Shown one piece after another: positions 4,654 through 32,000 of a DNA stretch of 32,000 nucleotides. This stretch comes from Methanosphaera stadtmanae DSM 3091 (GTDB taxonomy: Archaea > Methanobacteriota > Methanobacteria > Methanobacteriales > Methanobacteriaceae), in contig NC_007681.1 of assembly GCF_000012545.1 (NCBI RefSeq), positions 1,050,001 through 1,082,000 of the forward strand, read 5' to 3'. Under the pieces are notes generated by a model, which had not been told where the DNA came from, did no database searches, and saw only the letters and a list, made by a program, of their open reading frames with translations. The first letter of the stretch is position 1. Each line of letters opens with the position of its first letter. The position numbers and the translations under genes were made by a program.

Positions 4654-6807
4654 TCATAGAATCATAGATAGGCTTATTCTACTACGTTCTATATCAACAC
4701 TTAAAACTCTTACTTCAACAATATCCCCCACATTTACAATATCCATTGGATGTCTTACAAACTTATCTTCAATAAGTTCTGATATATGAACAAGACCATC
4801 TTGATGTACTCCAATATCAACAAATGCTCCAAAATCTACAACATTACGAACAACACCCTCTAAAATCATACCTTCTTCTAAATCCTCAATATCTATCACG
4901 TCACTACGTAGTTGTGGTGCATCTAATTTTTCACGAGGATCACGTCCTGGTTTTCTAAGTTCATCAATAATGTCCCTTAATGTCCATTCTCCAACATCTA
5001 ACTCATTAGCCATTTTCTCAATATCATCAACTTCAATATTCACTCCACCATTTCTTACATCATCTAAGTCATAGCCATAGATTGAAAGAAGTGCAAGTGT
5101 AGTATCATATGATTCAGGATGAACACATGTTGTATCTAACACATTCTTTGGTGAGTATATTCTCATAAATCCAGCACATTGTTCAAATGTTTTAGCACCA
5201 ATACCTGGTACTTTTAATAGTTGATTTCTATCAACAAATAAACCATGTGTTTGTCTATATTCCACTATATTCTTAGCAATTTTACTAGATACTCCTGCAA
5301 CATGTTCCATAAGTGTTGCTGATGCAGTATTTAGGTCAACTCCAACGTTGTTTACACTTCTTTCAACAATACCTTCAAGTGATTCATCAAGTTTTTTAGC
5401 ATTCATATCATGCTGGTATTGTCCCACACCAATGGATTTTGGATCGATTTTTACAAGTTCTGCTAGTGGATCTTGTAATCTTCTTGCAATTGATATTGCA
5501 CCACGTTCTGTTACATCATAATCTGGAAATTCTTCCCTTGCAAGATTACTTGCTGAATATACTGATGCACCAGATTCATTAACTATCACGTATTTAACCT
5601 GTGTATCTTTTATAATATCGGCAATTATCTTCTCAGATTCACGTGAAGCAGTACCATTACCTAGTGCTATTAAATCAACGTTGTATTTATCTATTAATTT
5701 TAAAACAACATCTTTTGTTTCAGTTATTTTATTTTGTGGTTGGGTTGGATATACAACAGAGGTGTCTAATACTTTTCCATATTCATCTATTACTGCTAGT
5801 TTACAACCTGTTCTGAATGCTGGATCCCATCCTAGTACTACTTTATTTCTTATTGGTGGTTGCATCAATAGTTGTTCTAAATTTTTCTTAAATACTTTTA
5901 TTGATTTATCCTCTGCAACATCAGTTAGTATTGTTCTTATTTCTCTTTCTATTGCTGGTGCTATTAATCGTTTATATGAATCTTTTATTGCTTTTTTAAT
6001 GAATTCTGTTGTGTATTTATTATATTCCATTGCCTCTGGTGTTTTTGAATAATTTATTAATACTTCATCCTCTAGGAAGTATTGAATATTCTTTAGTGGT
6101 GCTTCTAATTTAACTTTTAATATGTTTTCATTCTCACCCCTATTTATTGCTAAGATTCTATGTTGTGGTATGTCTGAGATATTCTCAGAATAATCATAGT
6201 ACATTTCATATTCTGATGATTCCTCTTTATTTTTTGATTCAACTATAACTTTTCCTTTTTTAATACTAATATCCCTTATAAATCTTCTAAATGATGCTTT
6301 ATCCGATATAATATCGGCTATAATATCGTTTGCCCCTTGTTTTGCATCTTCTATTGTTGGTACTTCATCTGTTATGTATTTTTGAGCTTCAGTGTCAATA
6401 GAACAATCCATTTTCTGATCATATATTGTTAGAGCTAATTTCTCCAAACCTTTTTCTCTTGCCTTTGCTGCACGTGTAGTTTTCTTTTGTTTATATGGCC
6501 TATATAAATCCTCTAATTCAACAAGTGTTTCTACATCATTTATTTCATTTTCCAAATCAAGAGTTAATTTTCCCTGTTTTTCAATACTATTAAGAATATG
6601 TCTCTTACGTTCATTAAGTTTTTGAAGATATGTTAATCTTTCATTTAATTTACGTAGAATTTCATCATCTAATCCTCCTGTTGCTTCTTTTCTATATCTT
6701 GCAATGAAAGGTATGGTATTATCTTCATTAATAAGACTTATTGCAGCATTTGCTTGCCATGGTTTAATATTTAATTCATTTGCTATTACTTGTTCTATAT
6801 CAATCAT
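4654..6807 (-). CDS. tex: Tex-like transcription accessory protein (Tex N-domain, YqgF/RuvC-like, HhH, C-terminal S1)
   Basis: 717 aa. It carries the hallmark N-terminal TIPFIARYRKEATGGLDDE, a YqgF-like segment (VLGWDPAFRTGCKLAVIDEYGKV) and a C-terminal S1 domain (GMILEGVVRNVVDFGAFVDIGVHQDGLVHISEL). Confidence 0.9.
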   Translation of the reverse strand: MIDIEQVIANELNIKPWQANAAISLINEDNTIPFIARYRKEATGGLDDEILRKLNERLTYLQKLNERKRHILNSIEKQGKLTLDLENEINDVETLVELEDLYRPYKQKKTTRAAKAREKGLEKLALTIYDQKMDCSIDTEAQKYITDEVPTIEDAKQGANDIIADIISDKASFRRFIRDISIKKGKVIVESKNKEESSEYEMYYDYSENISDIPQHRILAINRGENENILKVKLEAPLKNIQYFLEDEVLINYSKTPEAMEYNKYTTEFIKKAIKDSYKRLIAPAIEREIRTILTDVAEDKSIKVFKKNLEQLLMQPPIRNKVVLGWDPAFRTGCKLAVIDEYGKVLDTSVVYPTQPQNKITETKDVVLKLIDKYNVDLIALGNGTASRESEKIIADIIKDTQVKYVIVNESGASVYSASNLAREEFPDYDVTERGAISIARRLQDPLAELVKIDPKSIGVGQYQHDMNAKKLDESLEGIVERSVNNVGVDLNTASATLMEHVAGVSSKIAKNIVEYRQTHGLFVDRNQLLKVPGIGAKTFEQCAGFMRIYSPKNVLDTTCVHPESYDTTLALLSIYGYDLDDVRNGGVNIEVDDIEKMANELDVGEWTLRDIIDELRKPGRDPREKLDAPQLRSDVIDIEDLEEGMILEGVVRNVVDFGAFVDIGVHQDGLVHISELIEDKFVRHPMDIVNVGDIVEVRVLSVDIERSRISLSMIL

Positions 6808-8294: not shown

Positions 8295-11200
8295 TTATGG
8301 TTTTATTGTAATAGTACCATTTACTGTAGATGGGGCATAAATATCATTAGATAAGTAATTTACTGTGAGTTTTTGTGAACCTTGTGGTAATTTAAGAGTT
8401 GTTTTTGCTTGTCCATTTACTAAATTAGCACTTGCAATTACACTACCCATATATACTACATTTACACTTCCTATTTTAACTGGCATATTTTTAGTATCCC
8501 ATACATCTATAACAAGTGTTGTGTTTGTTGTGGTTTTACTTGTTGTACTTAGTTTTATTGATGTTTTTGTTTTACTAATAGTAACTGATTTTACTACCTG
8601 TGAATCTTTATACATTGTGTTGTTAGTAAATTTAAATGTATATTTATGTGCTCCTGCAGTTGGTGTTAAATTAACAATACACATACCATTTACTACATTT
8701 GCCCTACTTACAATAGAACCCTTTGTATCATATACTTCTATTGTACCATTATTTATGGATTGTTTATTGAAGTTACGTGTAACTATTTTAAATTGTGTAT
8801 TTGTTGTAGTAGTATTTAATGTGTATATATCCATAGCTGAGTTATCTTTAACAACATTTATTGTTTTAAGAATAGCTACTTGTCTGTATATATCATCACC
8901 AACATATAATATTCTGTATCTATGTGCTCCTGCAGTTGGTGTTAAATTAACAATACACATACCATTTACTACATTTGCCCTACTTACAATAGAACCCTTT
9001 GTATCATATACTTCTATTGTACCATTATTTATGGATTGTTTATTGAAGTTACGTGTAACTATTTTAAATTGTGTATTTGTTGTAGTAGTATTTAATGTGT
9101 ATATATCCATAGCTGAGTTATCTTTAACAACATTTATTGTTTTAAGAATAGCTACTTGTCTGTATATATCATCACCAACATATAATATTCTGTATCTATG
9201 TGCTCCTGCAGTTGGTGTCATATTTATTATGTATTCACCATTTACAATATTTCCAGTACTTACAACAACACCTGTTGTAGTATCATTTACCACCATAACA
9301 CCACTTTTAAGTGGATTTTTAGATGAATCTTTAATGAGTATCTTAAGTGTTGTATTGGTTGTAACAGCCTTTAGTGTGTATAAATCCATACCAACCTTTT
9401 CTTTTAAAACATTTATTGTTTTAAGAATAGCTACTTCTTTGTATGTATCATCACCCACATATAATATTCTGTATCTGTGTGCTCCTGCAGTTGGTGTTAA
9501 ATTTATTATGTATTCACCATTTACAATATTTCCAGTATTTACAACAACACCTGTTGTAGTATCATTTACCACCATAACACCACTTTTAAGTGGATTTTTA
9601 GATGAATCTTTAATGAGTATTTTAAGTGTTGTATTTACTGTACTAGCTTTTAATGTGTATAAATCCATACTAATTTTTTCTTTTCTAATATTTAATGATT
9701 TTATAATAGTTGATGCGTTATACTTAGTATCACCAAGATATTTTATGGTGTATTTTTGAATTCCTGCTTCTGGTTTTAGATTTATCATGTATGTACCATT
9801 TACAAGACTTCCTTTACTTACAAGGTTATCTTCCACATCATACACTTCAATAAGCCCATTTGTTATTGTTTTTCTTTTTGAATCATGTACTCCTACTTTA
9901 ACTGTTGTATTTGTTGTAATGGAGTTAAGTGTGTATATATCCATACCTGTTGGTTCTTTTGCTGCATCTATTGTTGTTGTGTTAGTTGAAGGCATATATA
10001 AGTTTTCATTTCCATCATATACTACTGTAATATCATGTTTTCCTGTAGGTAAATTAAGATTTGTTGTTGCACTACCATCTACTAAGTCAATAGTTGATAA
10101 TAAGTTTTCATTTTCATAGATTTTTACTGTTTCATTACCAATTTGTGTGTTAAATCTATTTAATCCAGTTATGTTAATTGTAACATTTTTATAACTGTTT
10201 TTTAGAACATCAATTATGATATGTGTATCTACTTTGGAAGTAAATGTGTTGTTTATTAGATTAATTTCATGTGGATACAATGCATCTTCTTCTAATTCTT
10301 CTGAATCAAGAAGATTTTTCTGTGTTCCACTGATGTATGTATTTTCTACTGTTAGATAGTTAGCTTTACAACTGGAACTAGAATATATTGCATTATTACC
10401 TCCATTATTTAATAATCGGGAATTGTTGATGTATGCAACACCATCTTCAGCATATATTGCTCCACCATTACCTGCTGAGTTTTCTGTGAATATGGAGTTA
10501 TCAATGTATGTTTGTGCATTCCTACTTTTTGGTGCTGTTATGTGTATTGCTCCACCATCATCTGCATTGTTTTGTATGAATATGGAATTAAATACTGTTA
10601 ATTTAGCACTATTATATATTGCTCCACCAAAGAATGATGCAAAGTTTTTTATGAATGTGGAGTTAATTACTGTTAGATTGTTTTCATTGTATATTGCTCC
10701 ACCCATCATATATCCATTATTTTCCTCAAAGGTACAGTTTATTACTTCTAATGTTCCATAATTTGATATTGCTCCACCATTACCATCTAATCCACACCCA
10801 TATACTATTAAATTTTTAATAGTAAGTGTAGTACCTTTATTTACTGTTATAAAATGATTTTCATCATCACTACGTATTTTATTACCATTTCCATTGATTG
10901 TTACTTTTGTATTGTTTCCTGAGATATTTAATGTATCATCAGTTGTTGTGATATCTTTTCCTATGGAAATTGTAACTTCTTTATCTTTTGCAGAGTTTAT
11001 AGTATTTTTTAGTTCATCATAATTATTTACATTACTAGTTGTGTTTTGTGTATCTTGTTTTATTGTTTTTACAGGTGTTTTATCTTTTGATGTGTCTTTT
11101 TTATTTTCTAGGTTTTTTGTAGTTTGTTGTGATGTTTTTATATTATCACTACTTTTGATATTATTAGTATCTTCTTTTATATTGGTTTTTTCTATTGAAA

Positions 11201-11345
11201 GAGATGTATTTGGCATGTCAGCACTAACAGTTGTAGCACTAGATGTTATGTTATCTGTAGCAGATACTGCTGTTAATCCCACAATTAAAAGAACCATTAA
11301 AGATAAAAAGAAGATTTTATGCTTGTTTTTTAACATATGAATCAA
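8295..11345 (-). CDS. adhesin-like surface protein: signal/TM, Thr/Asn-rich linker, GGAI (PMP / parallel beta-helix type) repeats, then about 7 Ig-like modules of 92-93 aa
   Basis: 1016 aa. The real start is probably the third Met (MLKNKHKIFFLSLMVLLIVGLTAVSA, about 11336). GGAI(Y/S/H)N repeats alternate with N(C/S)(T/I)F..N motifs. The C-terminal half is tandem ~92-aa modules (MD[IL]YTL..T.NT...K ... VNG...I.L.P.AG...Y...Y.GD..Y). Confidence 0.85.
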   Translation of the reverse strand: MIHMLKNKHKIFFLSLMVLLIVGLTAVSATDNITSSATTVSADMPNTSLSIEKTNIKEDTNNIKSSDNIKTSQQTTKNLENKKDTSKDKTPVKTIKQDTQNTTSNVNNYDELKNTINSAKDKEVTISIGKDITTTDDTLNISGNNTKVTINGNGNKIRSDDENHFITVNKGTTLTIKNLIVYGCGLDGNGGAISNYGTLEVINCTFEENNGYMMGGAIYNENNLTVINSTFIKNFASFFGGAIYNSAKLTVFNSIFIQNNADDGGAIHITAPKSRNAQTYIDNSIFTENSAGNGGAIYAEDGVAYINNSRLLNNGGNNAIYSSSSCKANYLTVENTYISGTQKNLLDSEELEEDALYPHEINLINNTFTSKVDTHIIIDVLKNSYKNVTINITGLNRFNTQIGNETVKIYENENLLSTIDLVDGSATTNLNLPTGKHDITVVYDGNENLYMPSTNTTTIDAAKEPTGMDIYTLNSITTNTTVKVGVHDSKRKTITNGLIEVYDVEDNLVSKGSLVNGTYMINLKPEAGIQKYTIKYLGDTKYNASTIIKSLNIRKEKISMDLYTLKASTVNTTLKILIKDSSKNPLKSGVMVVNDTTTGVVVNTGNIVNGEYIINLTPTAGAHRYRILYVGDDTYKEVAILKTINVLKEKVGMDLYTLKAVTTNTTLKILIKDSSKNPLKSGVMVVNDTTTGVVVSTGNIVNGEYIINMTPTAGAHRYRILYVGDDIYRQVAILKTINVVKDNSAMDIYTLNTTTTNTQFKIVTRNFNKQSINNGTIEVYDTKGSIVSRANVVNGMCIVNLTPTAGAHRYRILYVGDDIYRQVAILKTINVVKDNSAMDIYTLNTTTTNTQFKIVTRNFNKQSINNGTIEVYDTKGSIVSRANVVNGMCIVNLTPTAGAHKYTFKFTNNTMYKDSQVVKSVTISKTKTSIKLSTTSKTTTNTTLVIDVWDTKNMPVKIGSVNVVYMGSVIASANLVNGQAKTTLKLPQGSQKLTVNYLSNDIYAPSTVNGTITIKP
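8645..9218. repeat. perfect tandem duplication: 276-bp unit x2, plus about the first 21 bp of a third unit
   Basis: I compared 8646-8921 with 8922-9197 base by base and they are identical. They encode two identical 92-aa modules within the adhesin-like CDS. Confidence 0.9.
9198..9755. repeat. tandem 279-bp unit x2, near-identical over about the first 165 bp and then diverging
   Basis: 9198-9476 and 9477-9755 both start (a/g)tgtgctcctgcagttggtgt and share long identical stretches. They encode 93-aa modules. Confidence 0.8.
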
Positions 11346-18329: not shown

Positions 18330-18617
18330 ATGGTTCTTGATGCTTATATACCATTTATAGGACTACTAATATTTGGTAACATAGAAAACTTAATTTTAGC
18401 ATCACAAGGTGTAGTAAAAGGTGCTAATCCCTTAAAACTAGGAATAGCAAGTATAATATGTGTAATAATATGGTTAATTATAGGTACAATTGGTACTAAC
18501 TTAGCTATGGCATACTCAAATGTAATAGAATTTGTTGGTGGACTTGCAATATTCGTACTAGGTCTTCAATCAATGATAGAATCAGCAAGATACAACGAAG
18601 ATCCAGAATACAAATAA
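18330..18617 (+). CDS. 3-TM half-size membrane transporter subunit A (single-repeat unit, MntP/DUF204-like or UPF0016-like; family unresolved)
   Basis: 95 aa with three hydrophobic segments. It has an LLIFGNIENL motif in TM1 and EFVGGLAIFVLGLQSMIE in TM3. It is a paralogue of the next gene. Confidence 0.7.
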   Translation: MVLDAYIPFIGLLIFGNIENLILASQGVVKGANPLKLGIASIICVIIWLIIGTIGTNLAMAYSNVIEFVGGLAIFVLGLQSMIESARYNEDPEYK

Positions 18618-18623
18618 GGTGAT
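18617..18623 (+). promoter_or_regulatory. SD-like AGGTGAT, 3 nt before ATG 18627
   Basis: The read sequence is taAGGTGATtaaATG. It partly overlaps the stop of the preceding paralogue. Confidence 0.5.
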
Positions 18624-18626
18624 TAA

Positions 18627-18899
18627 ATGTCTTTTATAGATGAATACAAAGAATTTTGGGGATTATTAATATTTGGTAACATAGAAAACTTAGTTCTATC
18701 ATCACAAGGAGCAGTAGCTGGAGTAGATCCAATAATACTAGGTGGTCTAAGTCTATTAGCAGTTATAATCTGGTTCCTTATAGGTACTTTTGGAACAAAA
18801 GTAGCTATTAAATATGCAAGAGTAATTGAATTTATTGGTGGACTTGCAATATTCATATTAGGTCTTCAATCAATGCTTGAAGCAATAAACATATTATAA
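18627..18899 (+). CDS. 3-TM half-size membrane transporter subunit B (paralogue of 18330..18617)
   Basis: 90 aa. It has the same LLIFGNIENL and EFIGGLAIFILGLQSMLE blocks. Stretches are identical to subunit A at the DNA level (for example ttaatatttggtaacatagaaaactta in both). Confidence 0.7.
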   Translation: MSFIDEYKEFWGLLIFGNIENLVLSSQGAVAGVDPIILGGLSLLAVIIWFLIGTFGTKVAIKYARVIEFIGGLAIFILGLQSMLEAINIL

Positions 18900-18908
18900 G
18901 AATAACTA

Positions 18909-18915
18909 TTTTTTT
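18909..18915 (+). terminator. T7 tract 10 nt after the stop of the second half-transporter gene
   Basis: taagaataactaTTTTTTTct. Confidence 0.35.
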
Positions 18916-18922
18916 CTAATAC

Positions 18923-18998
18923 GGTATGTTCATAACAAAGGGAAAATATATAAAGAAAAATTTTAACTAATTCTTTTTTTTAAGTTATGAACATAACC
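18923..18998. repeat. 12-bp perfect inverted repeat (TATGTTCATAAC / GTTATGAACATA) with a 47-nt spacer, extendable to 14 bp with one bulge
   Basis: Arms 18925-18936 and 18984-18995 are exact reverse complements. GG (18923-4) can pair with CC (18997-8) across a bulged A. Confidence 0.6.
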
Positions 18999-19638
18999 TG
19001 TTATCATTTTAAAAGAGTGTTTAAAAAAAGTGGTAGAAAATTACTTACTTAGAATGATTAATTATAAAACATGACCTTAAATCTCTGTATCTTTAAAAAT
19101 CCATGATATTCATATGAATAATATCCAAGACATATCCAAACTTATCCATTGATAACACATATTGGATAATTATCAGCTATTTTTTCAAGTGGAGAAAATT
19201 CTCATTCTATAGTCTCCATACAATGTAGAAAACTTACTTGAATATATATTTTTTTACCAGATTTTTCACATAAAAAAAAAATCAACTTCCTTTTTTCCTA
19301 TAAGATCTTTACATTTAAATTTCATAGAAAAAGAGCTTCTTGTAGAAATTCAGTATAAATAGATATGGTTATGTAGTTTTTTTTTCATTTTTTAAATAAT
19401 TAGTTATACTTGTTTTTGAGAATGTTTGTCCAGTTGAATTCATTAAATACCTTACAAACCATTTAAATAAATCCAAATCAACACAATATGCATTGATACT
19501 TTTTTTCGTCTTTTACTTGTTTTATTTCATCAAAAAATGTATAATCTACTAGTTTTTTATATAAAAAGTTTATAATAATTCATATATCAAACTAGAATAA
19601 CAAAGTTACACATATAAAAAGGATAAGTAAAGAAGTAT

Positions 19639-22600
19639 CTACATACTTACAACATCATCCTCAATTCTAAGACTAGAATTATCAGAAAAATGAAGGCCTT
19701 GTATTACTTCAAAAATACTATTTTTTGTCTTATTAGACAATGATTTAAAACCAAATAGTAATGATACTTCTTTTGCCAAATCATCCACGCCCATAGAATA
19801 ATTTACTGATAAAACTTCCTTAATTGCAAGTTCTACCTCCTGAGCATATATATAATCTATATTTGGTTTTTCTCTAAATCTAACACATATCTCCACATTT
19901 GGATTTAAATAAAAACCATCCTTATGATAAATACCACTACGCATAAGTTTAGTAGAATCTGCTATTTTATCCACAGTTGCCTTAAATTTCTTTGTAGCCT
20001 TAACATTATAGACTTTTTTAAGACGATTATATAATTCTTCATCACAGATTGGAGATTCAACACTAATAATATCCTCAATAACCTCCAGAACACTATTTTT
20101 ATCTAAACTATAGAAGTCATAACATACTATACTATTTTCATAGTAAACATAATCCTCATTTAATTTAACATCCTCACATTTAACATACTCCACATGTTCA
20201 TCAACTGAATCCTCCACAGGTATTTCTACAGTGTTTATAGTAACTGTGTTTTTAGATGTTGAAGTATCACTTGGAGTATTTACTCCATCTCCACTAACCT
20301 CAGGTAAACTTTGAGTAGTATCTTCTATTTTAGTATTATCATCTAAGTATTGTGTTTTATCAGTAACTTCAAGTTTATCTGCTCTTGTCTCATTTTCTAC
20401 ATCAATTAGTGCCTTATCAATAGCTTCAAGTAAGGTATTTTTAGCATTTATTCTATTATAATACCAGTCTGTTGACCAGATTCTATGGAACTTCCATCCT
20501 AATCCTTCAAGCATATTTTGTCTGAGTCTATCACGATCCCTTGCAGATGCACTACTATGATATGATGCACCATCACATTCTATTCCAAGAACATAATTAT
20601 TAGAATCTTTTGGATTAACTATTGCTAAATCAATTCTATAACCTGCACATCCCACCTGTTTTGAAACAATATAGCCCTCATCAGTAAGGAAGTTATATAC
20701 AGATTCTTCAAATGGTGAGTCAAAATCTCCATCTGTTATGTAATTTGTTGAGAATTCCCCAGTTTCTGCATAGTAAAGATATTTACTAAGAGCCTGTACA
20801 CCACGTGGTGATGTAGTTTTAATCTTAGCCTTCATATCACCTGATTTGAAGTTACAAAATACTACACATTTTTCCTTTGCACGTGTTGTAAGTACATTTA
20901 AACGACGTTCTCCTCCATCCCTATTTAATGGTCCAAAACTTAGGGAAAGTTTATGATTGTTATCATATCCATATCCTATACTTATTAGTATAACATCCCT
21001 TTCATCTCCCTGAATATTTTCAATATTTTTAATAAAGAATCCATCAGATCCTTCTTCATTGAAGTATTTTTGTAATTCAGGATGTTTTTTAAGTTCTGCT
21101 TCAAGCTCTTCACTGATTGCATCTCTTTGTTTTGTACTAAAAGTACCTATACCTAAACTTTTACTATTTCCATACTTTTTAAAATGATTTATTGCATAGT
21201 TAATTACATCTCTTGCTTCTATTCTATTTTGACTACTTCCACCCCTATCATAGACACTATCCTTGTTGTAAACAAATTTAAGACCCAATTCATCACTATT
21301 CTTTGCAGGAGATGGGAATATACATAGTTCATTGTTATAGAATTCCATATTTGACACTGCTATTAGTGATTGATGACGACTTCTATAGTGACACTTTAGC
21401 ATACGTGATGGTAGTGATGATTTACATAGATGAAGAATACTTTCAACATCCTGTATATCAATATCATCATCACTTTCAATGTTTGTTTCAACATCAAAAA
21501 ATGATGTTGGTGGAAGTTGTTTTGTATCACCCATTATAACGTAGTGTTTTCCCCTAAGAAGTGCTCCAAGTGCATCTTCTACCTTCACTTGACTTGCTTC
21601 ATCGAATATTACATAGTCAAAGTAAGATTCATATTCATGTGTATCAAGGTATTGTGCAATGGATAGTGGACTCATTAAGAAGCATGGTTTTATATCAGTG
21701 ATTATTGTTTTACATTCTGTTAATAATTGTCTTATTGGTTTGAAATTTCGTTTCTTGTTTATTTCACGTGCCAGGATTCCCAGTGATGATGATGGATTTA
21801 TACTAGCATTCATGTTAGGTTTTTTACTGTCTAGTTTTTCACGTACCCTGTATTTATTTAGGTCTATGGTTTGTTTATCTAATTTCTTGAATTTTTCAAT
21901 GTTATTTTCATATAATGTGTCATTAAATTCTTGTAATGTTTCATTTTCAGTGTATGCCTCTTCAAGTATGTTATTTACCATTGTATATGTAAAAAGTGAT
22001 TGTATTGCTTCTGATTTTATTTTATCCTCTTTTACTAGTTCTATGAATTCATGGGTGTATTCATTGGAATATTCCTTAGCATATGTGTTAAATTGATTCC
22101 AATCATTTATTGTTGAAATACTGGAGTTTAATTTTTGTATTTCTGTTTTTATGTTTTCAAAGTCTGTGTTAAAGAGTATGTTTTTTGATAGATTATCCTT
22201 AAATCCAAGTATGTTATCTAAAAATTGGTATTTCTCATTTATTATATTGTAAGAATAGTCTATTGTTTGAATTATATCTTTTAGATTTGGTATATCTTCT
22301 GGATTTATATTCTTTAGTAAATTGAAGTCTTGTTTTGTTAAAAATTGTGTAAGTGTATCATATTCATCTTTAAATTCTATGATATTTGTATTGGTACCAT
22401 TCCATGTTGTGAAGTATGTATCTAGTAGTGAATTATTTTCTTCTATGAATTTTTCTAGTCTTTCTCTATTTAGTAGTAGATCTATGTGATATTCTAGTTC
22501 ATCTGGTGATTTAAATGGACTTTGATTGAATATATCTGCTACTTGTGTGTTGATTTGTGTTAACTTATCATTGTTTCTTAGAAGTTGTTCTAATTGGTAG

Positions 22601-24180
22601 ATTATTTCTTCATCTGTTAGATTGTTAAATGATGTGTATGGTAGTATCTTGTTTCTTATACTAATTAGTGTATCATTCCATGAGAATAATCTTTCAAAGT
22701 CCCTTATTATTACATCATCATCCACATTAACTTCATAGTATGATAATAATTCTTTTTTAGAGTTTTTATAATTCTTATTTAAGAATTTCATGAAGGAATC
22801 TTTTCCAGACTTGAATTTACGAAACTTATCTTCTATTGTATTATCATTTAATGCCTTTTTTATCTGTGATAATTCAATATTTTCCTTCATTTGTTTAAAG
22901 TCATCAAGAAGTCTTATAACATCACATTGTATGAATATGTCAGAGGATATTACAATATCTTTTTGGTTGTTGATAAGTGTTGAAAGTTCTTCTTTTATTT
23001 GACTAAGATTTATGTTGTATTCATTAATATTAAAGTTATATTTACCATGATAGTCTTCTAGTGCTATTGCTACTTCTTCTAGAATATCTTTATCTTCCAA
23101 GTAGTTTCTATTTGACAGTAGTATTGTTCCTGTCTGAATATATTCAGGAATATGGGTCATTGAATTTATAGTGTTAATTCCTACTTTTTGACTGAAATTA
23201 TTTATATTCTCCACTAGAATATCGATTGTATTTGTTATTTTTTCTGTTTTTATCTTAATATTATCAATATCATTTGGTAGTAATGTTTCTATTGATGTTG
23301 ACTTCCAGGGATTTGTATTTATTGGTGATATTAATGTGTAGAGTTGTGCTATTTTATCTATTTTATTAAGAAGGTCTCCCCAATCCTTTTTAGATAACTC
23401 TTTTAGTGGTGGAAGATTTATCTTATATATTTCCTGATTTTGTTTTTCAAGATTTTGATATTCCTCTTCATATATTCCTATTAATTGATAGATTGTCTTG
23501 TCACTATTTCCATACTTGGATTGTATAACTTCAATATAGTTATTTAATAATATTTTTATCTGTTGAAGTTTATCATAATCATCAAATGATTTCATTTTAA
23601 CAGAATCACATGTTAATGTCTTACTAATATCTGCTAGTAATTGTTTATTTCTTGTTTTATTATCATATAATCCAAGACAGTATGTTCCAAGTCCTATATC
23701 TTCCATTCTTTTTTCTACAACTTCAAGTGCTGCCTTTTTTTCACTGACAAATAATATTTTCTGATTATTTGCTAGTAATTCTGCTATGAGATTTACAATT
23801 GTTTGTGATTTTCCAGTACCAGGAGGTCCTTCCACTACAAGACTATGTCCCTTTTTTGCATCTTCAATTACTGCTATTTGTGAAGAATCTGCATCTACTA
23901 CATTGTATACATCTATTGGATTTAATTGTTTATCAATTGTGTTTGTGTCAAATGATTCAAAATTATCTGGTTCTTTAAGTCCAAAGATACGACCTATTTC
24001 ACCACTACCCACATTATCTGACCAGTTAGTAAGATCTAGATCATTGTACATTACAAATTTCTTAAAATTAAATGTACTTAGATACTTATCCCTTACTACA
24101 TTCCATGATGGTTTTGATTTAATTGCTTCTTTTACTTTATTTAGATATGTGTATATGTCATGTTTTGATTCTACTTTCAT
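19639..24180 (-). CDS. Upf1-like SF1 helicase (AAA_11/AAA_12 type) fused to a Vsr/DUF559-like PD-(D/E)xK endonuclease and a DUF3320-like C-terminal domain
   Basis: 1513 aa. Helicase motifs: Walker A GPPGTGKS (23806-23829), motif II DEASQ (21589-21603), GDTKQLPP, HYRSRH, QGDERDVILIS and RRLNVLTTRAK. The REase block is YRIDLAIV..LGIECDGASYH..RDRDRLRQNMLEGLGWKFHRIWSTDW (about 20461-20721). The DUF3320-like tail is at about 19642-20160. It is in frame with the upstream 241-aa ORF across a single TAG. Confidence 0.9.
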   Translation of the reverse strand: MKVESKHDIYTYLNKVKEAIKSKPSWNVVRDKYLSTFNFKKFVMYNDLDLTNWSDNVGSGEIGRIFGLKEPDNFESFDTNTIDKQLNPIDVYNVVDADSSQIAVIEDAKKGHSLVVEGPPGTGKSQTIVNLIAELLANNQKILFVSEKKAALEVVEKRMEDIGLGTYCLGLYDNKTRNKQLLADISKTLTCDSVKMKSFDDYDKLQQIKILLNNYIEVIQSKYGNSDKTIYQLIGIYEEEYQNLEKQNQEIYKINLPPLKELSKKDWGDLLNKIDKIAQLYTLISPINTNPWKSTSIETLLPNDIDNIKIKTEKITNTIDILVENINNFSQKVGINTINSMTHIPEYIQTGTILLSNRNYLEDKDILEEVAIALEDYHGKYNFNINEYNINLSQIKEELSTLINNQKDIVISSDIFIQCDVIRLLDDFKQMKENIELSQIKKALNDNTIEDKFRKFKSGKDSFMKFLNKNYKNSKKELLSYYEVNVDDDVIIRDFERLFSWNDTLISIRNKILPYTSFNNLTDEEIIYQLEQLLRNNDKLTQINTQVADIFNQSPFKSPDELEYHIDLLLNRERLEKFIEENNSLLDTYFTTWNGTNTNIIEFKDEYDTLTQFLTKQDFNLLKNINPEDIPNLKDIIQTIDYSYNIINEKYQFLDNILGFKDNLSKNILFNTDFENIKTEIQKLNSSISTINDWNQFNTYAKEYSNEYTHEFIELVKEDKIKSEAIQSLFTYTMVNNILEEAYTENETLQEFNDTLYENNIEKFKKLDKQTIDLNKYRVREKLDSKKPNMNASINPSSSLGILAREINKKRNFKPIRQLLTECKTIITDIKPCFLMSPLSIAQYLDTHEYESYFDYVIFDEASQVKVEDALGALLRGKHYVIMGDTKQLPPTSFFDVETNIESDDDIDIQDVESILHLCKSSLPSRMLKCHYRSRHQSLIAVSNMEFYNNELCIFPSPAKNSDELGLKFVYNKDSVYDRGGSSQNRIEARDVINYAINHFKKYGNSKSLGIGTFSTKQRDAISEELEAELKKHPELQKYFNEEGSDGFFIKNIENIQGDERDVILISIGYGYDNNHKLSLSFGPLNRDGGERRLNVLTTRAKEKCVVFCNFKSGDMKAKIKTTSPRGVQALSKYLYYAETGEFSTNYITDGDFDSPFEESVYNFLTDEGYIVSKQVGCAGYRIDLAIVNPKDSNNYVLGIECDGASYHSSASARDRDRLRQNMLEGLGWKFHRIWSTDWYYNRINAKNTLLEAIDKALIDVENETRADKLEVTDKTQYLDDNTKIEDTTQSLPEVSGDGVNTPSDTSTSKNTVTINTVEIPVEDSVDEHVEYVKCEDVKLNEDYVYYENSIVCYDFYSLDKNSVLEVIEDIISVESPICDEELYNRLKKVYNVKATKKFKATVDKIADSTKLMRSGIYHKDGFYLNPNVEICVRFREKPNIDYIYAQEVELAIKEVLSVNYSMGVDDLAKEVSLLFGFKSLSNKTKNSIFEVIQGLHFSDNSSLRIEDDVVSM

Positions 24181-24201
24181 GTCTGATGGAAGATTAATTC
24201 C

Positions 24202-24204
24202 CTA
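24202..24204 (-). other. in-frame amber (TAG) codon separating the DUF4011 ORF from the helicase ORF
   Basis: The minus strand reads AAA CTT CTA GAT TAG GGA ATT AAT CTT CCA TCA GAC ATG AAA GTA. The span 19639..24927 is 5289 nt, which is 1763 codons in one frame. Confidence 0.9.
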
Positions 24205-24927
24205 ATCTAGAAGTTTATGTTTTAGTGATAGGTTAAGGGATATTTCCTCACCTGTTGCTTTTATTGAAAATGGTGAATCTATGGATTGTCTTTCTATTTC
24301 AACAGGAATAAGTATGAGTGGAGCTTTATGTGTTGCTTCTTCATAATCTGTTTGTTTCCACTCGAGAAATCCTAGTGCTAAGTATAATGTGTTATATCCA
24401 GATTCCTGTATACTAGATTTATAGTATTGCATGAGTGAAAACAATCTTTTTTGTAATTCATTTTCTGTTAGATTTGTTTGAAGATAGAGGTCCCTGTATT
24501 TTTCTGGAATATTATCTAGATTTGTTGGCATCTGCCAGATATTAATATCTTCTGTACCACTTTGTAAATCATGTGTCTTTTCTGTTTTATGTGTATTTCT
24601 TGTATCTATTGATTTATTATGAGAGTCTTTTTTATCTAAATCAACATATTCTCCACTATCAACATATTCTTCATTAAATCTATTACTTTTATCTTCCAAT
24701 GTATATGTGTTTCTATTTGTGTCTTTTTTTGGTTTTGGAAGAAATTCCATACTATTTTCATCAACAATCAGTATATTATATAATTCTCCTATATCCTCAT
24801 CTATAATTGGTATGGTACGTTTTACTTCCTTGAAATTTAGTAGATTATTTCTTAATCCCATATCTAGAAGATTTTTACGTGAGGTATCAAAGATTTTATT
24901 AAATTCATTTGTTTTTGTCTCTTGCAT
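24202..24927 (-). CDS. DUF4011-like N-terminal module of the helicase-nuclease (separate ORF, or the 5' part of a gene disrupted by a nonsense codon)
   Basis: 241 aa with DUF4011-type blocks (RKNLLDMGLRNNLLNFKE, ESGYNTLYLALGFLEW, APLILIPVEIERQS..PFSIKATGEEISLNLSLKHKL). Confidence 0.75.
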   Translation of the reverse strand: MQETKTNEFNKIFDTSRKNLLDMGLRNNLLNFKEVKRTIPIIDEDIGELYNILIVDENSMEFLPKPKKDTNRNTYTLEDKSNRFNEEYVDSGEYVDLDKKDSHNKSIDTRNTHKTEKTHDLQSGTEDINIWQMPTNLDNIPEKYRDLYLQTNLTENELQKRLFSLMQYYKSSIQESGYNTLYLALGFLEWKQTDYEEATHKAPLILIPVEIERQSIDSPFSIKATGEEISLNLSLKHKLLD

Positions 24928-29953: not shown

Positions 29954-30103
29954 CTATATTACCTTCTTAAAAAATAAAAAATCTATACCACTTTAAGATA
30001 TATTACATCTTATTAATAAGAGTTGTGTATGAGGAGTGTTTGTCACTGTCAGAAGTTCAGTGGATATAACTTTTCATATTTTTTAAATCCCAAAATGCTA
30101 GTG

Positions 30104-31107
30104 TTAGTTTTGCTCGTGTTTTTTGCTCCTTTTAAACGTTTTCATTTTTCTTTTTATGTGTTTTAGCATTATTTTCAGAAACATATTTTCTAATTGGCTA
30201 CTAGTCCTTTCTATTTTTGAATCTTCACAATTTTCTTTATGTTTTTGAGATATGGTTGTATAGTTTTTTAACATATCTCGATTATTGGTTTATAATAATT
30301 TTTTTTTATTATTTAAAATATCTTCAAGTATTTTTCTAGCATTTTTAATAGTCTGTGCATATATTATTAAATTTATCCTCTTCTTTTGTTGATATAATTT
30401 GTTTATTTCATTTTCATTCAAGTTATTTTCTTTAATAAACTTTTTAAGGTCTCTATTTATCTTTTGTTGTAAGTTAAACTGACAAAATTGGTGATCCATC
30501 ATTAATTTATCTATTGGTTTTCTATATTCTTCTTTAAGGTCTGTTGTAACTGTTTTTTTGATTGATTTCTTGTAGATTCTCTTAAAAAAAGTGTATATTT
30601 CTTTTTCTCCCTCAAAAGAAGCCATTTTAAGGTTTATTATAGTGTTGTATTTACTGTCCATTAAAGCATGAAGATAGTTCTATTCGCCGTTAATTTTAAT
30701 CCAAAGACTGTCAAATAGATAATAACCTGAGTAATGTTCTATTTTATTTTTATTTGAATATTTAAAGCTTAGTATTATATTTTCAATTGATTGATATGAA
30801 ATATTAATATTATGAATTGATTTTAGAATTAATTGGGTCTTTCTTAGTGAAATCTTAGATATGGCATAATATTTCCATATTACATTTTTTATCTCATTAG
30901 TTATATTGTTATTTTCAACAACAACATCAGACATGTCTACTTGATAATTTTTATTACAGTTTTTACATATATATCTTTCAATATATGTTGTAACATGTCC
31001 TTCATTTAAAATATGTAATTTACGTGTATTATATCCATTTTTAACAATATTTTTAGAAGAACATTCAGGGCAATGTTTATGATGTTCTTTAAAAATGATT
31101 TTACCAT
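30104..31107 (-). pseudogene. transposase pseudogene: ATG 31107, a 1-nt frameshift in an A4 run (31099-31102), in-frame TAG (30680-30682), in-frame TAA (30290-30292), final stop at 30104
   Basis: If the A4 run is restored to A5, the frame reads MVKIIFKEHHKHCPECSSKNIVKNGYNTRKLHILNEGHVTTYIERYICKNCNKNYQVDMSDVVV... The span 30104..30934 is 831 nt in one frame. DDE-type blocks are present: YLFDSLWIKINGE(*)NYLHALMDSKYNTII, VTTDLKEEYRKPI, and IERTSSQLENMFLKIMLKHIKRKMKTFKRSKKHEQ. Confidence 0.65.
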
Positions 31108-31113
31108 TTTTTT

Positions 31114-31323
31114 TTAGATACGTGTAACTGATTTTGATTTACATTTAGCTTTATCTATCTTTAAAAATGTCTTAGATTCAATTTCTACAAAATCTTCTAT
31201 AAAATCGTAAAGTTTAAGTTGTTTGTCGTGCAAAATAGTATTAGGAGCTTTTATTTTTAAGTTTTTCATATAAATATATAAGTTCCTCTTTATATAAAGA
31301 CTTTTTCTATGCTTATTTTTCAT
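31114..31323 (-). CDS. small basic ORF (69 aa) immediately upstream of the transposase remnant; doubtful gene
   Basis: The ORF exists and ends in a TAA that abuts an A9 run. I recognise no motif, and its Lys-rich, low-complexity composition is compatible with chance in AT-rich DNA. Confidence 0.25.
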   Translation of the reverse strand: MKNKHRKSLYIKRNLYIYMKNLKIKAPNTILHDKQLKLYDFIEDFVEIESKTFLKIDKAKCKSKSVTRI

Positions 31324-31843
31324 AATAGAATTATTTCAAGTGTAAATTTTTAATTTAAACCATTTCAAGTATATTTCTATTTTTTTATTGAAAATTTAAA
31401 AAAATCAAAAATCAACTAAGTTTCTGACAAATGACTAATTTAGTAAAAATCATACTGCATCGACGAGACGAATAAATATGTAATATTTTAAATTTTTCAG
31501 AATAGATATTATGACTTTATAGAAAAACTATATCCACAACATAATTTTTAAATTTTCATATCATAAAATCAGATTTTACACTTGAAATAAAACTTAATTA
31601 AAACTTTAAATAATATTAAAGTTTAAATTAGTATAATATTATAAAATAAGTATTTATATTAAAAAATAATATAAATTAATATATGAATATTAAAAGTATT
31701 TCTTATAATAATATAAATTCAAAAAGAAGTCAATTATATATAACTTTTTTTTCATATTTAACCAATACATTTATATAGTATCCAAGTATATAATAAAAAT
31801 AAAGAAAGATAAAAAATATTCCTTATAAAAAAATTTGAAGAAA

Positions 31844-31972
31844 GTGTGACAATTCTGTTTGGGTATTTTTCAACAAGATTTTGTTGTTATCATATACAGA
31901 ATTACCCCTATTGATGTTTTCTTAAATAACTGACAAAATAAACAATCAACATAGTAAACTAAATTGTCACAC
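31844..31972. repeat. 129-bp segment bounded by an 11-bp perfect inverted repeat (GTGTGACAATT ... AATTGTCACAC) with nested short hairpins
   Basis: The outer arms are 31844-31854 and 31962-31972. Inside are AATTCTGT (31851-58) / ACAGAATT (31896-903) and CAACAA (31871-76) / TTGTTG (31881-86). No ORF is present. Confidence 0.5.
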
Positions 31973-32000
31973 ATTATTGATTTAAAAAAAAGTAAAGGTA

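Follow-up and report, generated by a model that had tools for sequence, protein, structure and literature searches.

A DUF4011–helicase–nuclease gene of the Hhe/ProA/PDC-S37 type interrupted by a single, recent in-frame stop in Methanosphaera stadtmanae DSM 3091

The genome of the gut methanogen Methanosphaera stadtmanae DSM 3091 carries, on the minus strand of the 32,000-nucleotide stretch analysed here (contig NC_007681.1, positions 1,050,001 to 1,082,000; "the window"), two adjoining open reading frames (ORFs) which together specify a DUF4011 domain, a helicase and a nuclease. This raises the question of whether the locus encodes a single-polypeptide defence protein, as had been suggested in a preceding sequence-only reading, and in which state the gene is found in this strain.

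According to the ORF list and the translation, the two minus-strand ORFs lie in one frame and constitute a single 1762-codon gene that is split by one in-frame TAG (Table 1). In the public annotation, the gene appears as ABC57318 (DUF4011 protein) and ABC57317 ("predicted helicase"). The TAG and seven sense codons separate the 241-aa from the 1513-aa ORF, the translation reading ...KHKLLD*GINLPSDMKVESK, and the position of the stop, Q242*, coincides with the C-terminal end of DUF4011, whose Pfam match ends at residue 239 of 241.

Table 1. Features of the DUF4011–helicase–nuclease gene and of its 3' spacer (window positions).
Feature	Position	Strand	Remarks
Whole DUF4011–helicase–nuclease gene	19639..24927	-	1762 codons + stop; in-frame TAG inside in DSM 3091
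Short ORF	24202..24927	-	241 aa
Premature stop TAG, Q242*	24202..24204	-	CAG in all intact alleles; coding-strand C→T at window position 24204
Long ORF	19639..24180	-	1513 aa
DUF4011 domain, residues 19-239	24211..24873	-	Pfam 1.3e-47, full profile covered
RecA1, N-terminal part	23638..23907	-	DADSSQ (Q-like), Walker A GPPGTGKS 23806-23829, motif Ia FVSEKKAAL
All-alpha insert, ~645 residues, motif Ia to II	21703..23637	-	AlphaFold pLDDT 86.8
RecA1, C-terminal part, and RecA2	20833..21702	-	II DEASQ 21589-21603, III GDTKQLPPT, IV HYRSRH, V QGDERD, VI RRLNVLTTRA
MTES_1575 (Vsr-like) endonuclease	20419..20712	-	Pfam PF18741 2.6e-38; 130 bits vs gathering score 38.2
C-terminal tail	19642..20157	-	sub-threshold DUF3320 match at 20014-20118
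Non-coding spacer 3' of gene, 740 bp	18900..19638	.	M. stadtmanae-specific; 65-210 bp in other Methanosphaera

The domain order of the 1762-aa protein is DUF4011, Upf1-like SF1 helicase with a ~650-aa helical insert in RecA1, MTES_1575 (Vsr-like) endonuclease and DUF3320-like tail. The ORF coordinates and the single-gene architecture that had been read from the sequence are upheld, and the suggested Pfam search recovered DUF4011, AAA_11 (6.7e-18), AAA_12 (6.4e-15) and MTES_1575. In the AlphaFold model, the DUF4011 domain has an alpha/beta core (mean pLDDT 68) and finds no fold match in the PDB; its residues ~65–135 form a poorly conserved, low-confidence loop with 4–20% identity to homologues. 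The full Upf1-like SF1B motif set (Q, I, Ia, II, III, IV, V, VI) is present, and the positions previously assigned to GPPGTGKS and DEASQ agree with ORF arithmetic. In an alignment of 19 sequences, among them one bona fide representative each of Hhe (2735 bits) and ProA (2310 bits), the residues of DADSSQ, GPPGTGKS and FVSEKKAAL are invariant, and those of motifs II–VI are invariant or at least 90% conserved.

Motif Ia is ~708 residues away from motif II, and the intervening insert had been described as a K/E/N-rich, probably coiled-coil region of about 700 residues. It is all-alpha in the AlphaFold model, but its composition (I/N/L/K/E-rich) is near that of the whole protein, and its helices comprise at most 33 residues each, which fits helical bundles and not a single long coiled coil. 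No part of the protein diverges more than the insert, for which identities are 35–58% within the genus and 5–18% to bacterial relatives; a long insert is, however, common to the whole family, Hhe and ProA included, and not methanogen-specific. Foldseek comparison of the insert with the PDB returned only generic long-helix proteins (E ≥ 1e-3, TM ≤ 0.14); hence, neither for this region nor for the DUF4011 domain was a structural analogue found in the PDB to guide mechanism.

The nuclease residues D1433, E1450 and D1452 are contained in the series IDLAIV...GIECDG...RDRDRLRQ...GW...RIWSTDW; D1433 and D1452 are invariant, and E1450 is found in 17 of the 19 aligned sequences. Catalytic residues of both the helicase and the nuclease are intact in the alignment, so that no substitution speaks against an active enzyme. 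The earlier domain labels need adjustment: MTES_1575 is a strong match, but the alternative label DUF559 (17.9 bits) stays below its Pfam gathering score of 20.6, and so does DUF3320 (PF11784; 20.8–21.1 bits against 25). Since orthologues in other methanogens clear the DUF3320 threshold in precomputed Pfam lists and the alignment to the ProA profile continues through the tail, this part of the protein is homologous to DUF3320 but diverged. In MTES_1575-type proteins, the corresponding C-terminal region has been described as a wHTH (PMC3710099).

Profile comparisons place the gene in the Hhe/ProA/PADLOC PDC-S37 superfamily and, within it, in the DUF3320-tailed clade, which comprises PDC-S37 and the core of ProA minus its N-terminal domain. 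No library gave a better match than PADLOC PDC-S37 (PDLC05009; candidate single-gene phage defence), on which the repaired protein, represented by the intact allele P0001, scores 1455 bits. The window gene covers profile positions 4–1534 of 1550 (4–183 by the short ORF), falls into the same length class and has the same order of DUF4011, helicase, nuclease and tail; PDC-S37 is a defence candidate only, on which no publication was found in the literature searched, and the window copy differs from it by the interrupting stop codon. On the ProA profile (NCBIfam NF058533), P0001 reaches 1233 bits and thus remains below the cut-off of 1500, compared with 2310 bits for the bona fide ProA of Burkholderia sp. 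PAMC 26561 (WP_062173973, 2205 aa), with which it shares ~27% identity and identical catalytic residues. The ProA core is collinear, with P0001 residues 6–1728 matching profile positions 353–1902 of 1903 in one stretch through the DUF3320 tail. The ProA-specific N-terminal domain of ~350 residues (profile 1–352), which in the Burkholderia protein extends over residues 29–395 (409 bits), is absent from the window protein, and the gene next upstream in the window encodes a flavin reductase, not this domain. The designation of ProA as "anti-phage" derives from the NCBIfam name alone; no ProA publication was found in the literature searched.

Hhe (NCBIfam NF042953, PADLOC PDLC02194) had been named in the earlier reading as a validated helicase plus Vsr-nuclease system of this architecture, and this is correct as judged from its DefenseFinder entry ("Gao Hhe"), its NCBI name ("DUF4011 domain-containing anti-phage protein Hhe") and the published protection that it confers, as a single gene with a Vsr nuclease, against lambda, T3, T7 and PhiV-1 (Gao et al. 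2020). Defence by E. coli Hhe is abolished by E1731A, and phage genes act as triggers and counter-defences; an account of the Hhe mechanism was not found in the literature searched. In both Hhe and the intact Methanosphaera allele, a single gene joins the DUF4011 N-terminus, the SF1 motif set, a long insert separating motif Ia from motif II, and MTES_1575. The intact allele unites the domain trio in one polypeptide; in the window, the TAG divides it. Membership in the Hhe class, as proposed earlier, stands as homology but not as Hhe proper: the repaired P0001 scores 909.7 bits against a cut-off of 2000 (the window ORFs singly 101 and 800 bits), compared with 2735 bits for the bona fide Hhe encoded on a plasmid of Klebsiella (WP_021314612, 1911 aa). 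The alignment is restricted to the N- and C-terminal parts, as seen from a tblastn coverage of 58% ending at residue 1491 and from two HMM stretches (N-terminus and profile 1048–1713); the insert is not alignable (10–17% identity), and Hhe is devoid of a DUF3320 tail match. E1450, in GIECDG, is matched in the alignment by E1727 of the Klebsiella protein and is, as inferred from the motif, presumably equivalent to E1731 of the E. coli protein. Filing the gene as either Hhe or ProA was rejected because the repaired protein is below both curated cut-offs.

A sequence search of the PDB yielded the helicase cores of the Upf1-like SF1B enzymes IGHMBP2 (4b3g), Sen1 (5mzn) and Dna2 (5eaw) and no relative beyond the helicase core. 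These RecA-core matches (E 4e-10 to 9e-4) span only ~45–260 motor residues; the three enzymes are without DUF4011, the 650-aa helical insert or a Vsr-like nuclease, although Dna2 likewise joins a helicase to a nuclease, and TIGR00376, at 91 bits, stays below its cut-off of 349. Public databases already contain many annotated archaeal members of the family, which is common and annotated across Methanobacteriales.

With respect to its genomic setting, the gene is found at the same position, by a membrane-protein pair/wHTH/histone/aminotransferase/GluRS block, in at least five Methanosphaera lineages. In a Ca. M. massiliense-like lineage, the gene is cleanly absent with both flanks conserved; it is, therefore, accessory and not a core gene shared by all related methanogens. 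Presence and absence were judged from exact-protein look-ups and not from the scan of GTDB representative genomes, which returned two distant MAG loci only and not M. stadtmanae itself; the look-up for M. cuniculi reached a paralogous locus. Between species, the protein is 53–63% identical, compared with 79–95% for the neighbouring GluRS and aminotransferase, and most of the differences fall in the insert, in the DUF4011 loop and in the tail.

The decayed mobile-element debris that had been suspected on the 3' side was not confirmed. The two small ORFs at 18330–18899 are tandem membrane-protein paralogues, which are located beside the gene in every other Methanosphaera locus examined, and the 740-bp spacer, searched as stitched minus-strand fragments, yielded a non-significant DUF4143 hint alone (E = 0.083). 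Rfam detected no RNA elements in the window. PADLOC and Pfam searches for partner genes or a defence island returned nothing significant for ten neighbours, the nearest of which are ordinary genes, in agreement with the earlier impression that there is no obvious partner. A HerA-like ATPase is encoded upstream of the gene in three other species; because it is missing from the window, it was rejected as an obligate partner. The gene is located where synteny breaks, ~7 kb away from the cas genes, whose operon starts just past the window end, and a strain-variable junction (window 30041), where an IS6 fragment (30680–30934) is found, lies ~5 kb from it. Further afield, the homologue of Methanobrevibacter sp. 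YE315 is surrounded by small unannotated ORFs with an integrase gene close by, that of Methanobacterium adjoins an XPD/DinG-like helicase, and DUF262 gene pairs flank the Klebsiella Hhe and a DUF3320-type homologue from Vibrio. Bacterial homologues are present on 512 plasmid records and near-full-length relatives on ~10 IMG/VR contigs.

Five intact 1762-aa alleles were retrieved from gut metagenomes, and it is the TAG alone that sets the window copy apart from them. In the comparison among the six alleles, CAG→TAG is the sole window-unique nucleotide in the 5289-nt gene; hence, Q242* is very recent and most likely a knockout. P0001, with Q242 present, is 100% identical over the long ORF, and the closest intact allele differs from the window copy, beyond the TAG, at one synonymous site. 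A pN/pS of 0.15–0.25 among the alleles indicates purifying selection in wild gut M. stadtmanae. A second, independent nonsense allele, Y838*, was found in another gut sample. Apart from the TAG, the gene of DSM 3091 displays no further decay and is best described, from its sequence, as a pseudogene newly created by a nonsense mutation or, at most, as a split gene. As the next in-frame ATG (24180, M250) lies eight codons downstream of the TAG and is not preceded by a Shine-Dalgarno-like sequence (the true start is preceded by GTGAT), the DSM 3091 allele is most likely null.

That the stop is an error of sequencing or assembly and the gene of the strain is intact would be conceivable for a single-base difference from all intact alleles in a reference genome which dates from 2006; it is very improbable, though, considering that the separate draft assembly GCA_001729395.1 has the identical TAG on a 7-kb contig (identical to the window over 7 kb except for two bases at the contig end) and that the site is outside any homopolymer or repeat. 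We also judge it improbable that the TAG is genuine but not inactivating, be it by a split system made of the 241-aa product and a 1513-aa product re-initiated at M250 or by readthrough. The stop at a domain boundary, the nearby in-frame ATG and the undecayed remainder of the gene would all accommodate such an arrangement, but the M250 codon is also present in the intact alleles and was, thus, not selected as a new start, it is without a Shine-Dalgarno-like sequence, and the split is confined to the DSM 3091 lineage, with the intact alleles read keeping CAG. Recoding of TAG was rejected, since the gene's own terminator is TAG and the codon is, therefore, read as a stop in this gene; furthermore, pyrrolysine is not known to be used in Methanobacteriales.

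As to function, we lean towards the view that the intact protein acts on its own as an ATP-powered nuclease that surveys nucleic acids and is directed against viruses or plasmids, and that DSM 3091 possesses a recent null allele of its gene. The helicase motor would load onto DNA and track along it. Sensing a trigger or restraining the enzyme may be the task of the helical insert, which evolves fast, together with the DUF4011 domain and the tail; upon activation, the Vsr-like nuclease would cut DNA, either that of the invader or, in abortive infection, that of the host. DNA is favoured as the target because the nuclease fold is that of a DNA endonuclease and the tail is a wHTH. A defence role in a methanogen is plausible in the light of the Y838* allele, the absence from one lineage, the fast evolution, the variable junction, and the plasmid and viral relatives. 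Against it stand the failure to reach the curated equivalog cut-offs of Hhe and ProA, the lack of a dense defence island around the gene in the window, and the fixed chromosomal position, which would suit genome maintenance too. A wider proposal, possible though doubtful, is that the intact gene serves human-gut Methanosphaera as a resident single-protein nuclease against viruses or plasmids, evolves fast and occupies a replaceable slot by the CRISPR-Cas region; DSM 3091 would then be a one-base knockout of natural origin, with other knockouts having arisen independently in wild strains.

The principal alternative, which we hold to be unlikely, is a resident genome-maintenance enzyme acting on forks, R-loops or recombination intermediates in the manner of the eukaryotic Upf1-like helicases Sen1 and IGHMBP2 and of Dna2—the closest solved relatives by sequence—that is non-essential and can be lost in culture. 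The conserved position beside the same block of genes in at least five lineages, ordinary nearest neighbours without PADLOC matches, the XPD/DinG-like helicase beside the Methanobacterium homologue and purifying selection among alleles are in keeping with it. So is PA14_RS11765 of Pseudomonas aeruginosa, a core DUF4011 gene flanking the defence hotspot cDHS1 and present in every isolate (PMC10250203). By description, both this gene and the window gene stay at a constant place in the chromosome bordering a variable or defence region; the P. aeruginosa gene, however, occurs in every isolate, whereas one Methanosphaera lineage is without the gene and at least two strains carry a knocked-out copy. 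A maintenance role also sits uneasily with a sister lineage that is cleanly without the gene, two independent nonsense alleles in one species, evolution much faster than that of housekeeping neighbours, relatives on plasmids, on viral contigs and amid small unannotated ORFs with an integrase gene, and the fact that the two closest named families are both anti-phage.

Mechanistic work on Hhe/ProA-type helicase–nucleases is scarce in the literature searched, and no test of them in archaea was found there. Being a broken member of an already catalogued family, the gene described here leaves the knowledge of the Hhe/ProA-type system itself unchanged. The Methanosphaera gene behaves as accessory, with one lineage lacking it, at least two knockouts and fast-evolving non-catalytic parts, and the type strain, which is used in most laboratory work, carries what is most likely a one-base null allele. 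If the intact protein is indeed a defence nuclease, the reference laboratory strain would be immunodeficient for an Hhe/ProA-type system, and the repeated loss of the gene would suggest that it is costly to keep, e.g., through autoimmunity. Intact alleles as close as one further synonymous site constitute a ready-made genetic contrast in case Methanosphaera viruses or plasmids become available.

Finally, in two contigs (L010 and P0178) the gene is fused, by its 5' part, with genes unrelated to it; these contigs were read as probable metagenome chimeras, not as rearrangements.

The DUF4011-helicase gene of Methanosphaera stadtmanae DSM 3091 is split in two minus-strand open reading frames, 24927..24202 (241 aa) and 24180..19639 (1513 aa), the products of which correspond to the public records ABC57318/Q2NFT5 and ABC57317/Q2NFT6, respectively (exact-sequence look-up; the neighbouring genes agree). 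These positions coincide exactly with those of the sequence-only reading, which had also located the GPPGTGKS and DEASQ motifs correctly. Both ORFs lie in one frame and are separated by a TAG codon (24202-24204) and seven sense codons (...KHKLLD*GINLPSDMKVESK). An intact 1762-aa allele (P0001), the representative of a 383-sequence cluster, matches the long ORF with 100% identity and contains a glutamine at the interrupted codon (...KHKLLDQGINLPSD). Upon comparison of the 5289-nt window gene with five intact alleles on gut metagenome contigs, the sole window-unique base is a C→T exchange at 24204, which converts CAG to TAG; the nearest allele (L008) shows one further, synonymous difference. Among the alleles, pN/pS amounts to 0.15-0.25, based on small counts.

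A sequencing error as the source of the TAG is unlikely, because the same codon is present in a separate draft assembly (GCA_001729395.1), with 7 kb being identical save two bases at the contig end. The terminator of the whole gene is likewise TAG; therefore, TAG is read as a stop in M. stadtmanae. The stop coincides with the C-terminal boundary of DUF4011. The ATG at 24180 (M250) is already present in the intact alleles; no Shine-Dalgarno-like sequence is found upstream of it, while the true start is preceded by GTGAT. Most likely, the window copy is a very recent null allele; much less probably, the two products act together as a working two-piece protein. An independent TAC→TAG exchange at codon 838 (Y838*; 5566-5568 of the scaffold, window 22414-22416) interrupts the allele on a gut-metagenome M. 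stadtmanae scaffold (L028), which has kept Q242 and has lost 6 nt in frame near codon 1527. Two short metagenome sequences (L010 and P0178) join the 5' part of the gene to an unrelated RmlD-like and an unrelated dipeptidase-like gene, one each, with break points at nt 2493 or around codon 497; these fusions probably are assembly chimeras.

Features of the DUF4011-helicase gene, its surroundings and related loci (window positions unless a locus or residues are named)
Feature	Position	Strand	Remarks
DUF4011	residues 19-239		Pfam E = 1.3e-47, whole profile covered
AAA_19 + AAA_11	around Walker A motif		Pfam
AAA_11 C-terminal part + AAA_12			Pfam
MTES_1575			Pfam E = 2.6e-38
DUF3320			Pfam, sub-threshold (21 bits; gathering score 25)
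GPPGTGKS	23806-23829	-	
DEASQ	21589-21603	-	
Two tandem paralogous ORFs, small membrane proteins	18330-18899		90-95 aa; 251 nt at 75% identity
740-bp spacer 3' of the gene	18900-19638		M. stadtmanae-specific; 65-210 bp in other species
Strain-variable junction	30041-32000		other short ORFs present
IS6-family transposase fragment	30680-30934		E = 1e-4
HerA-like ATPase (DUF87 + HerA_C, 510-534 aa)	L016 8004-9536; L019 8240-9820; L065 14910-16833	same as DUF4011 gene	directly upstream of DUF4011 gene
Slot without DUF4011 gene, membrane pair to flavin reductase	L063 9271-11843		2.6 kb, four small ORFs
DUF262 gene pair	L022 2259-5745; L023 11011-14260		beside Klebsiella plasmid Hhe (L022) and Vibrio plasmid DUF3320-type homologue (L023)

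The Pfam search recovered DUF4011, AAA_11, AAA_12 and MTES_1575 as anticipated from the motifs; the DUF3320 tail stayed below its gathering score. Against PADLOC models, P0001 reaches 1455 bits for PDC-S37, a single-gene phage-defence candidate (profile positions 4-1534 of 1550), and 653 bits for Hhe. On the NCBIfam models of the two named anti-phage families it scores 1233 bits for ProA (cut-off 1500), in a single collinear stretch from profile position 353, and 910 bits for Hhe (cut-off 2000), in two stretches. Controls for the NCBIfam scoring were taken from plasmids and gave the anticipated results: the Klebsiella hhe product obtains 2735 bits on the Hhe model, and a 2205-aa Burkholderia protein with an extra ~350-400 N-terminal residues obtains 2310 bits for ProA. 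A third control, a Vibrio protein of 1566 aa annotated as "DUF3320 domain-containing protein", does not have the ProA N-terminal domain and, like the window protein, stays under the ProA cut-off (1391 bits). By these profile scores and plasmid controls, the window protein is assigned to a clade with DUF3320 tails (PDC-S37, or a ProA core minus its N-terminal domain), with Hhe as the sister clade. It shares a collinear core with ProA, but lacks the N-terminal domain characteristic of the latter.

The protein had been proposed as an archaeal member of the Hhe class; the superfamily was right, but the protein fails the curated cut-off and does not count as Hhe proper, and DSM 3091 carries a broken copy. 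The account of Hhe as a validated system was correct: DefenseFinder lists it as "Gao Hhe", and the literature describes a Vsr-endonuclease system, encoded by one gene with helicase and nuclease domains, that is active against lambda, T3, T7 and PhiV-1; in E. coli Hhe, defence is abolished by E1731A. Public databases already give the domain annotation of the window protein, and dozens of methanogen proteins are annotated there as DUF4011 or DUF3320. For the DUF4011 domain alone, 4,716 representatives of 50%-identity clusters match at E <= 1e-3. Added by the analysis are the one-base natural knockout in the type strain, the accessory status of the gene within the genus, and the clade, which is that of PDC-S37/ProA core and not Hhe.

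In a 19-sequence alignment of the family with the plasmid controls included, the helicase motif residues are invariant or, at a few positions, conserved at >=90%, and D1433 and D1452 of the nuclease show no variation. E1450, which aligns with E1727 of Klebsiella Hhe, is present in 17 of the 19 sequences; the two exceptions, the Methanobacterium proteins P0110 and P0116, contain alanine instead (GIACDG) and may, judged from this substitution, be nuclease-dead family members. Within the genus, RecA1, RecA2 and the nuclease share 60-89% identity and the insert 35-58%; the values for the other regions of the protein are 48-58% for the tail, 24-25% for the spacer and 4-20%, to homologues, for the DUF4011 loop. 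Thus, the catalytic modules are conserved and the non-catalytic parts divergent.

Motif Ia and motif II are spaced by ~708 residues. From Walker A to motif II, the Vibrio protein has ~570 residues, ProA ~800 and Hhe ~890; this gap, being long in all relatives compared, is a family feature rather than a methanogen peculiarity. In an AlphaFold model spanning residues 330-1170 (RecA1 + insert; 43-sequence alignment, mean pLDDT 86.8), the insert, earlier suspected to be a coiled coil, is indeed wholly alpha-helical, but its predicted helices of <=33 residues fit bundles rather than one long coiled coil. A Foldseek search of the PDB with the insert model gave no match below E = 1e-3, but only generic long-helix proteins (TM <= 0.14). 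The DUF4011 model is of moderate confidence (pLDDT 68), with an alpha/beta core, a disordered loop at about residues 65-135 and no PDB counterpart. By sequence, the PDB search returned only Upf1-like helicase cores (IGHMBP2, Sen1, Dna2).

On every M. stadtmanae metagenome contig with the identical flavin reductase and sufficient length, the gene occupies the same position; the majority of these copies are intact. At least four further Methanosphaera lineages have orthologues of 53-63% identity, where housekeeping neighbours such as GluRS and the aminotransferase show 79-95% in the same comparisons. The downstream block (membrane pair, wHTH, histone, aminotransferase, GluRS) is kept in these loci. 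Upstream, the loci differ: two lineages have flavin reductase and FUSC_2, three a HerA-like ATPase, and in one of these three a MazG-like gene lies between the ATPase and the DUF4011 gene; M. stadtmanae has no HerA-like ATPase beside the gene. In a lineage with a membrane-protein allele filed under Candidatus Methanosphaera massiliense (NCBI), both flanks are kept (72-82% DNA identity) and tblastn detected no trace of the DUF4011 gene. Two of the four small ORFs that fill the slot resemble pieces of a decayed flavoprotein gene, and the MFS transporter gene is likewise missing from this locus. Given this clean absence, the gene is accessory within Methanosphaera, and not the universally conserved core gene that would have spoken against the defence proposal.

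Outside the genus, Methanobrevibacter sp. YE315 (CP010834 427309-450130) encodes a 2273-aa homologue amid ~20 small unannotated ORFs, near a collagen-repeat protein and a protein containing a domain whose name derives from a Methanothermobacter plasmid gene; with an integrase ~6 kb away, the locus resembles an integrated element with the homologue as cargo. A Methanobacterium homologue adjoins an XPD/DinG-like helicase. Bacterial homologues occur on 512 plasmid records, near-full-length relatives on ~10 IMG/VR contigs, and the association with DUF262 genes recurs across both the Hhe and the DUF3320-type clade.

We favour the inferred role of a stand-alone ATP-driven DNA-surveillance nuclease against viruses or plasmids, null in DSM 3091. 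An intact Upf1-like SF1B helicase would serve as the motor and an intact Vsr-like DNA endonuclease, the equivalent glutamate of which is essential in Hhe, as the effector; the tail is a probable wHTH, as described earlier for the DUF3320 region (PMC3710099), and sensing or autoinhibition may be the task of the DUF4011 domain, the tail and the variable insert, the obvious candidates. Studies of Hhe suggest that the system responds to DNA-metabolism functions of the phage rather than to one recognized protein, and that phages encode counter-defences against it. The main rival, a non-essential role in genome maintenance, appears rather improbable: the constant position in most Methanosphaera lineages and a core DUF4011 gene in P. 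aeruginosa (PMC10250203) are in its favour, whereas the clean absence from one lineage, repeated knockouts, fast evolution and mobile-element carriage argue against it.

The window neighbours are ordinary genes, namely a flavin reductase, a FUSC_2 membrane protein, a DUF2085 protein and small ORFs without known function on one flank, and the membrane pair, a wHTH protein, an MFS transporter, an aminotransferase and GluRS on the other; PADLOC models gave no significant match to the ten nearest proteins. What had been taken for mobile-element debris 3' of the gene is the membrane pair ("putative Mn2+ efflux pump MntP" at JGI), tandem paralogues that are widespread in Methanobrevibacter and sit beside the DUF4011 gene at each of the other Methanosphaera loci examined. 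Minus-strand fragments in the 740-bp spacer show a weak, non-significant DUF4143-type ATPase likeness (E = 0.083). Past 30041 strains diverge, with an IS6 transposase fragment in some, as in the window, and a Phage_integrase fragment and cas3 in others. Type I cas genes (Cas8-like, Cas7, Cas5) follow from ~47 bp beyond the window end, as seen in a locus of matching arrangement (L005), roughly 7 kb from the start of the DUF4011 gene. Elsewhere in the window, a minus-strand ORF (8295-11345, 1016 aa) contains Big_3_5 and Chlamydia-PMP repeats, with ~3 copies of 276-279-bp tandem repeats (83-87% matches).
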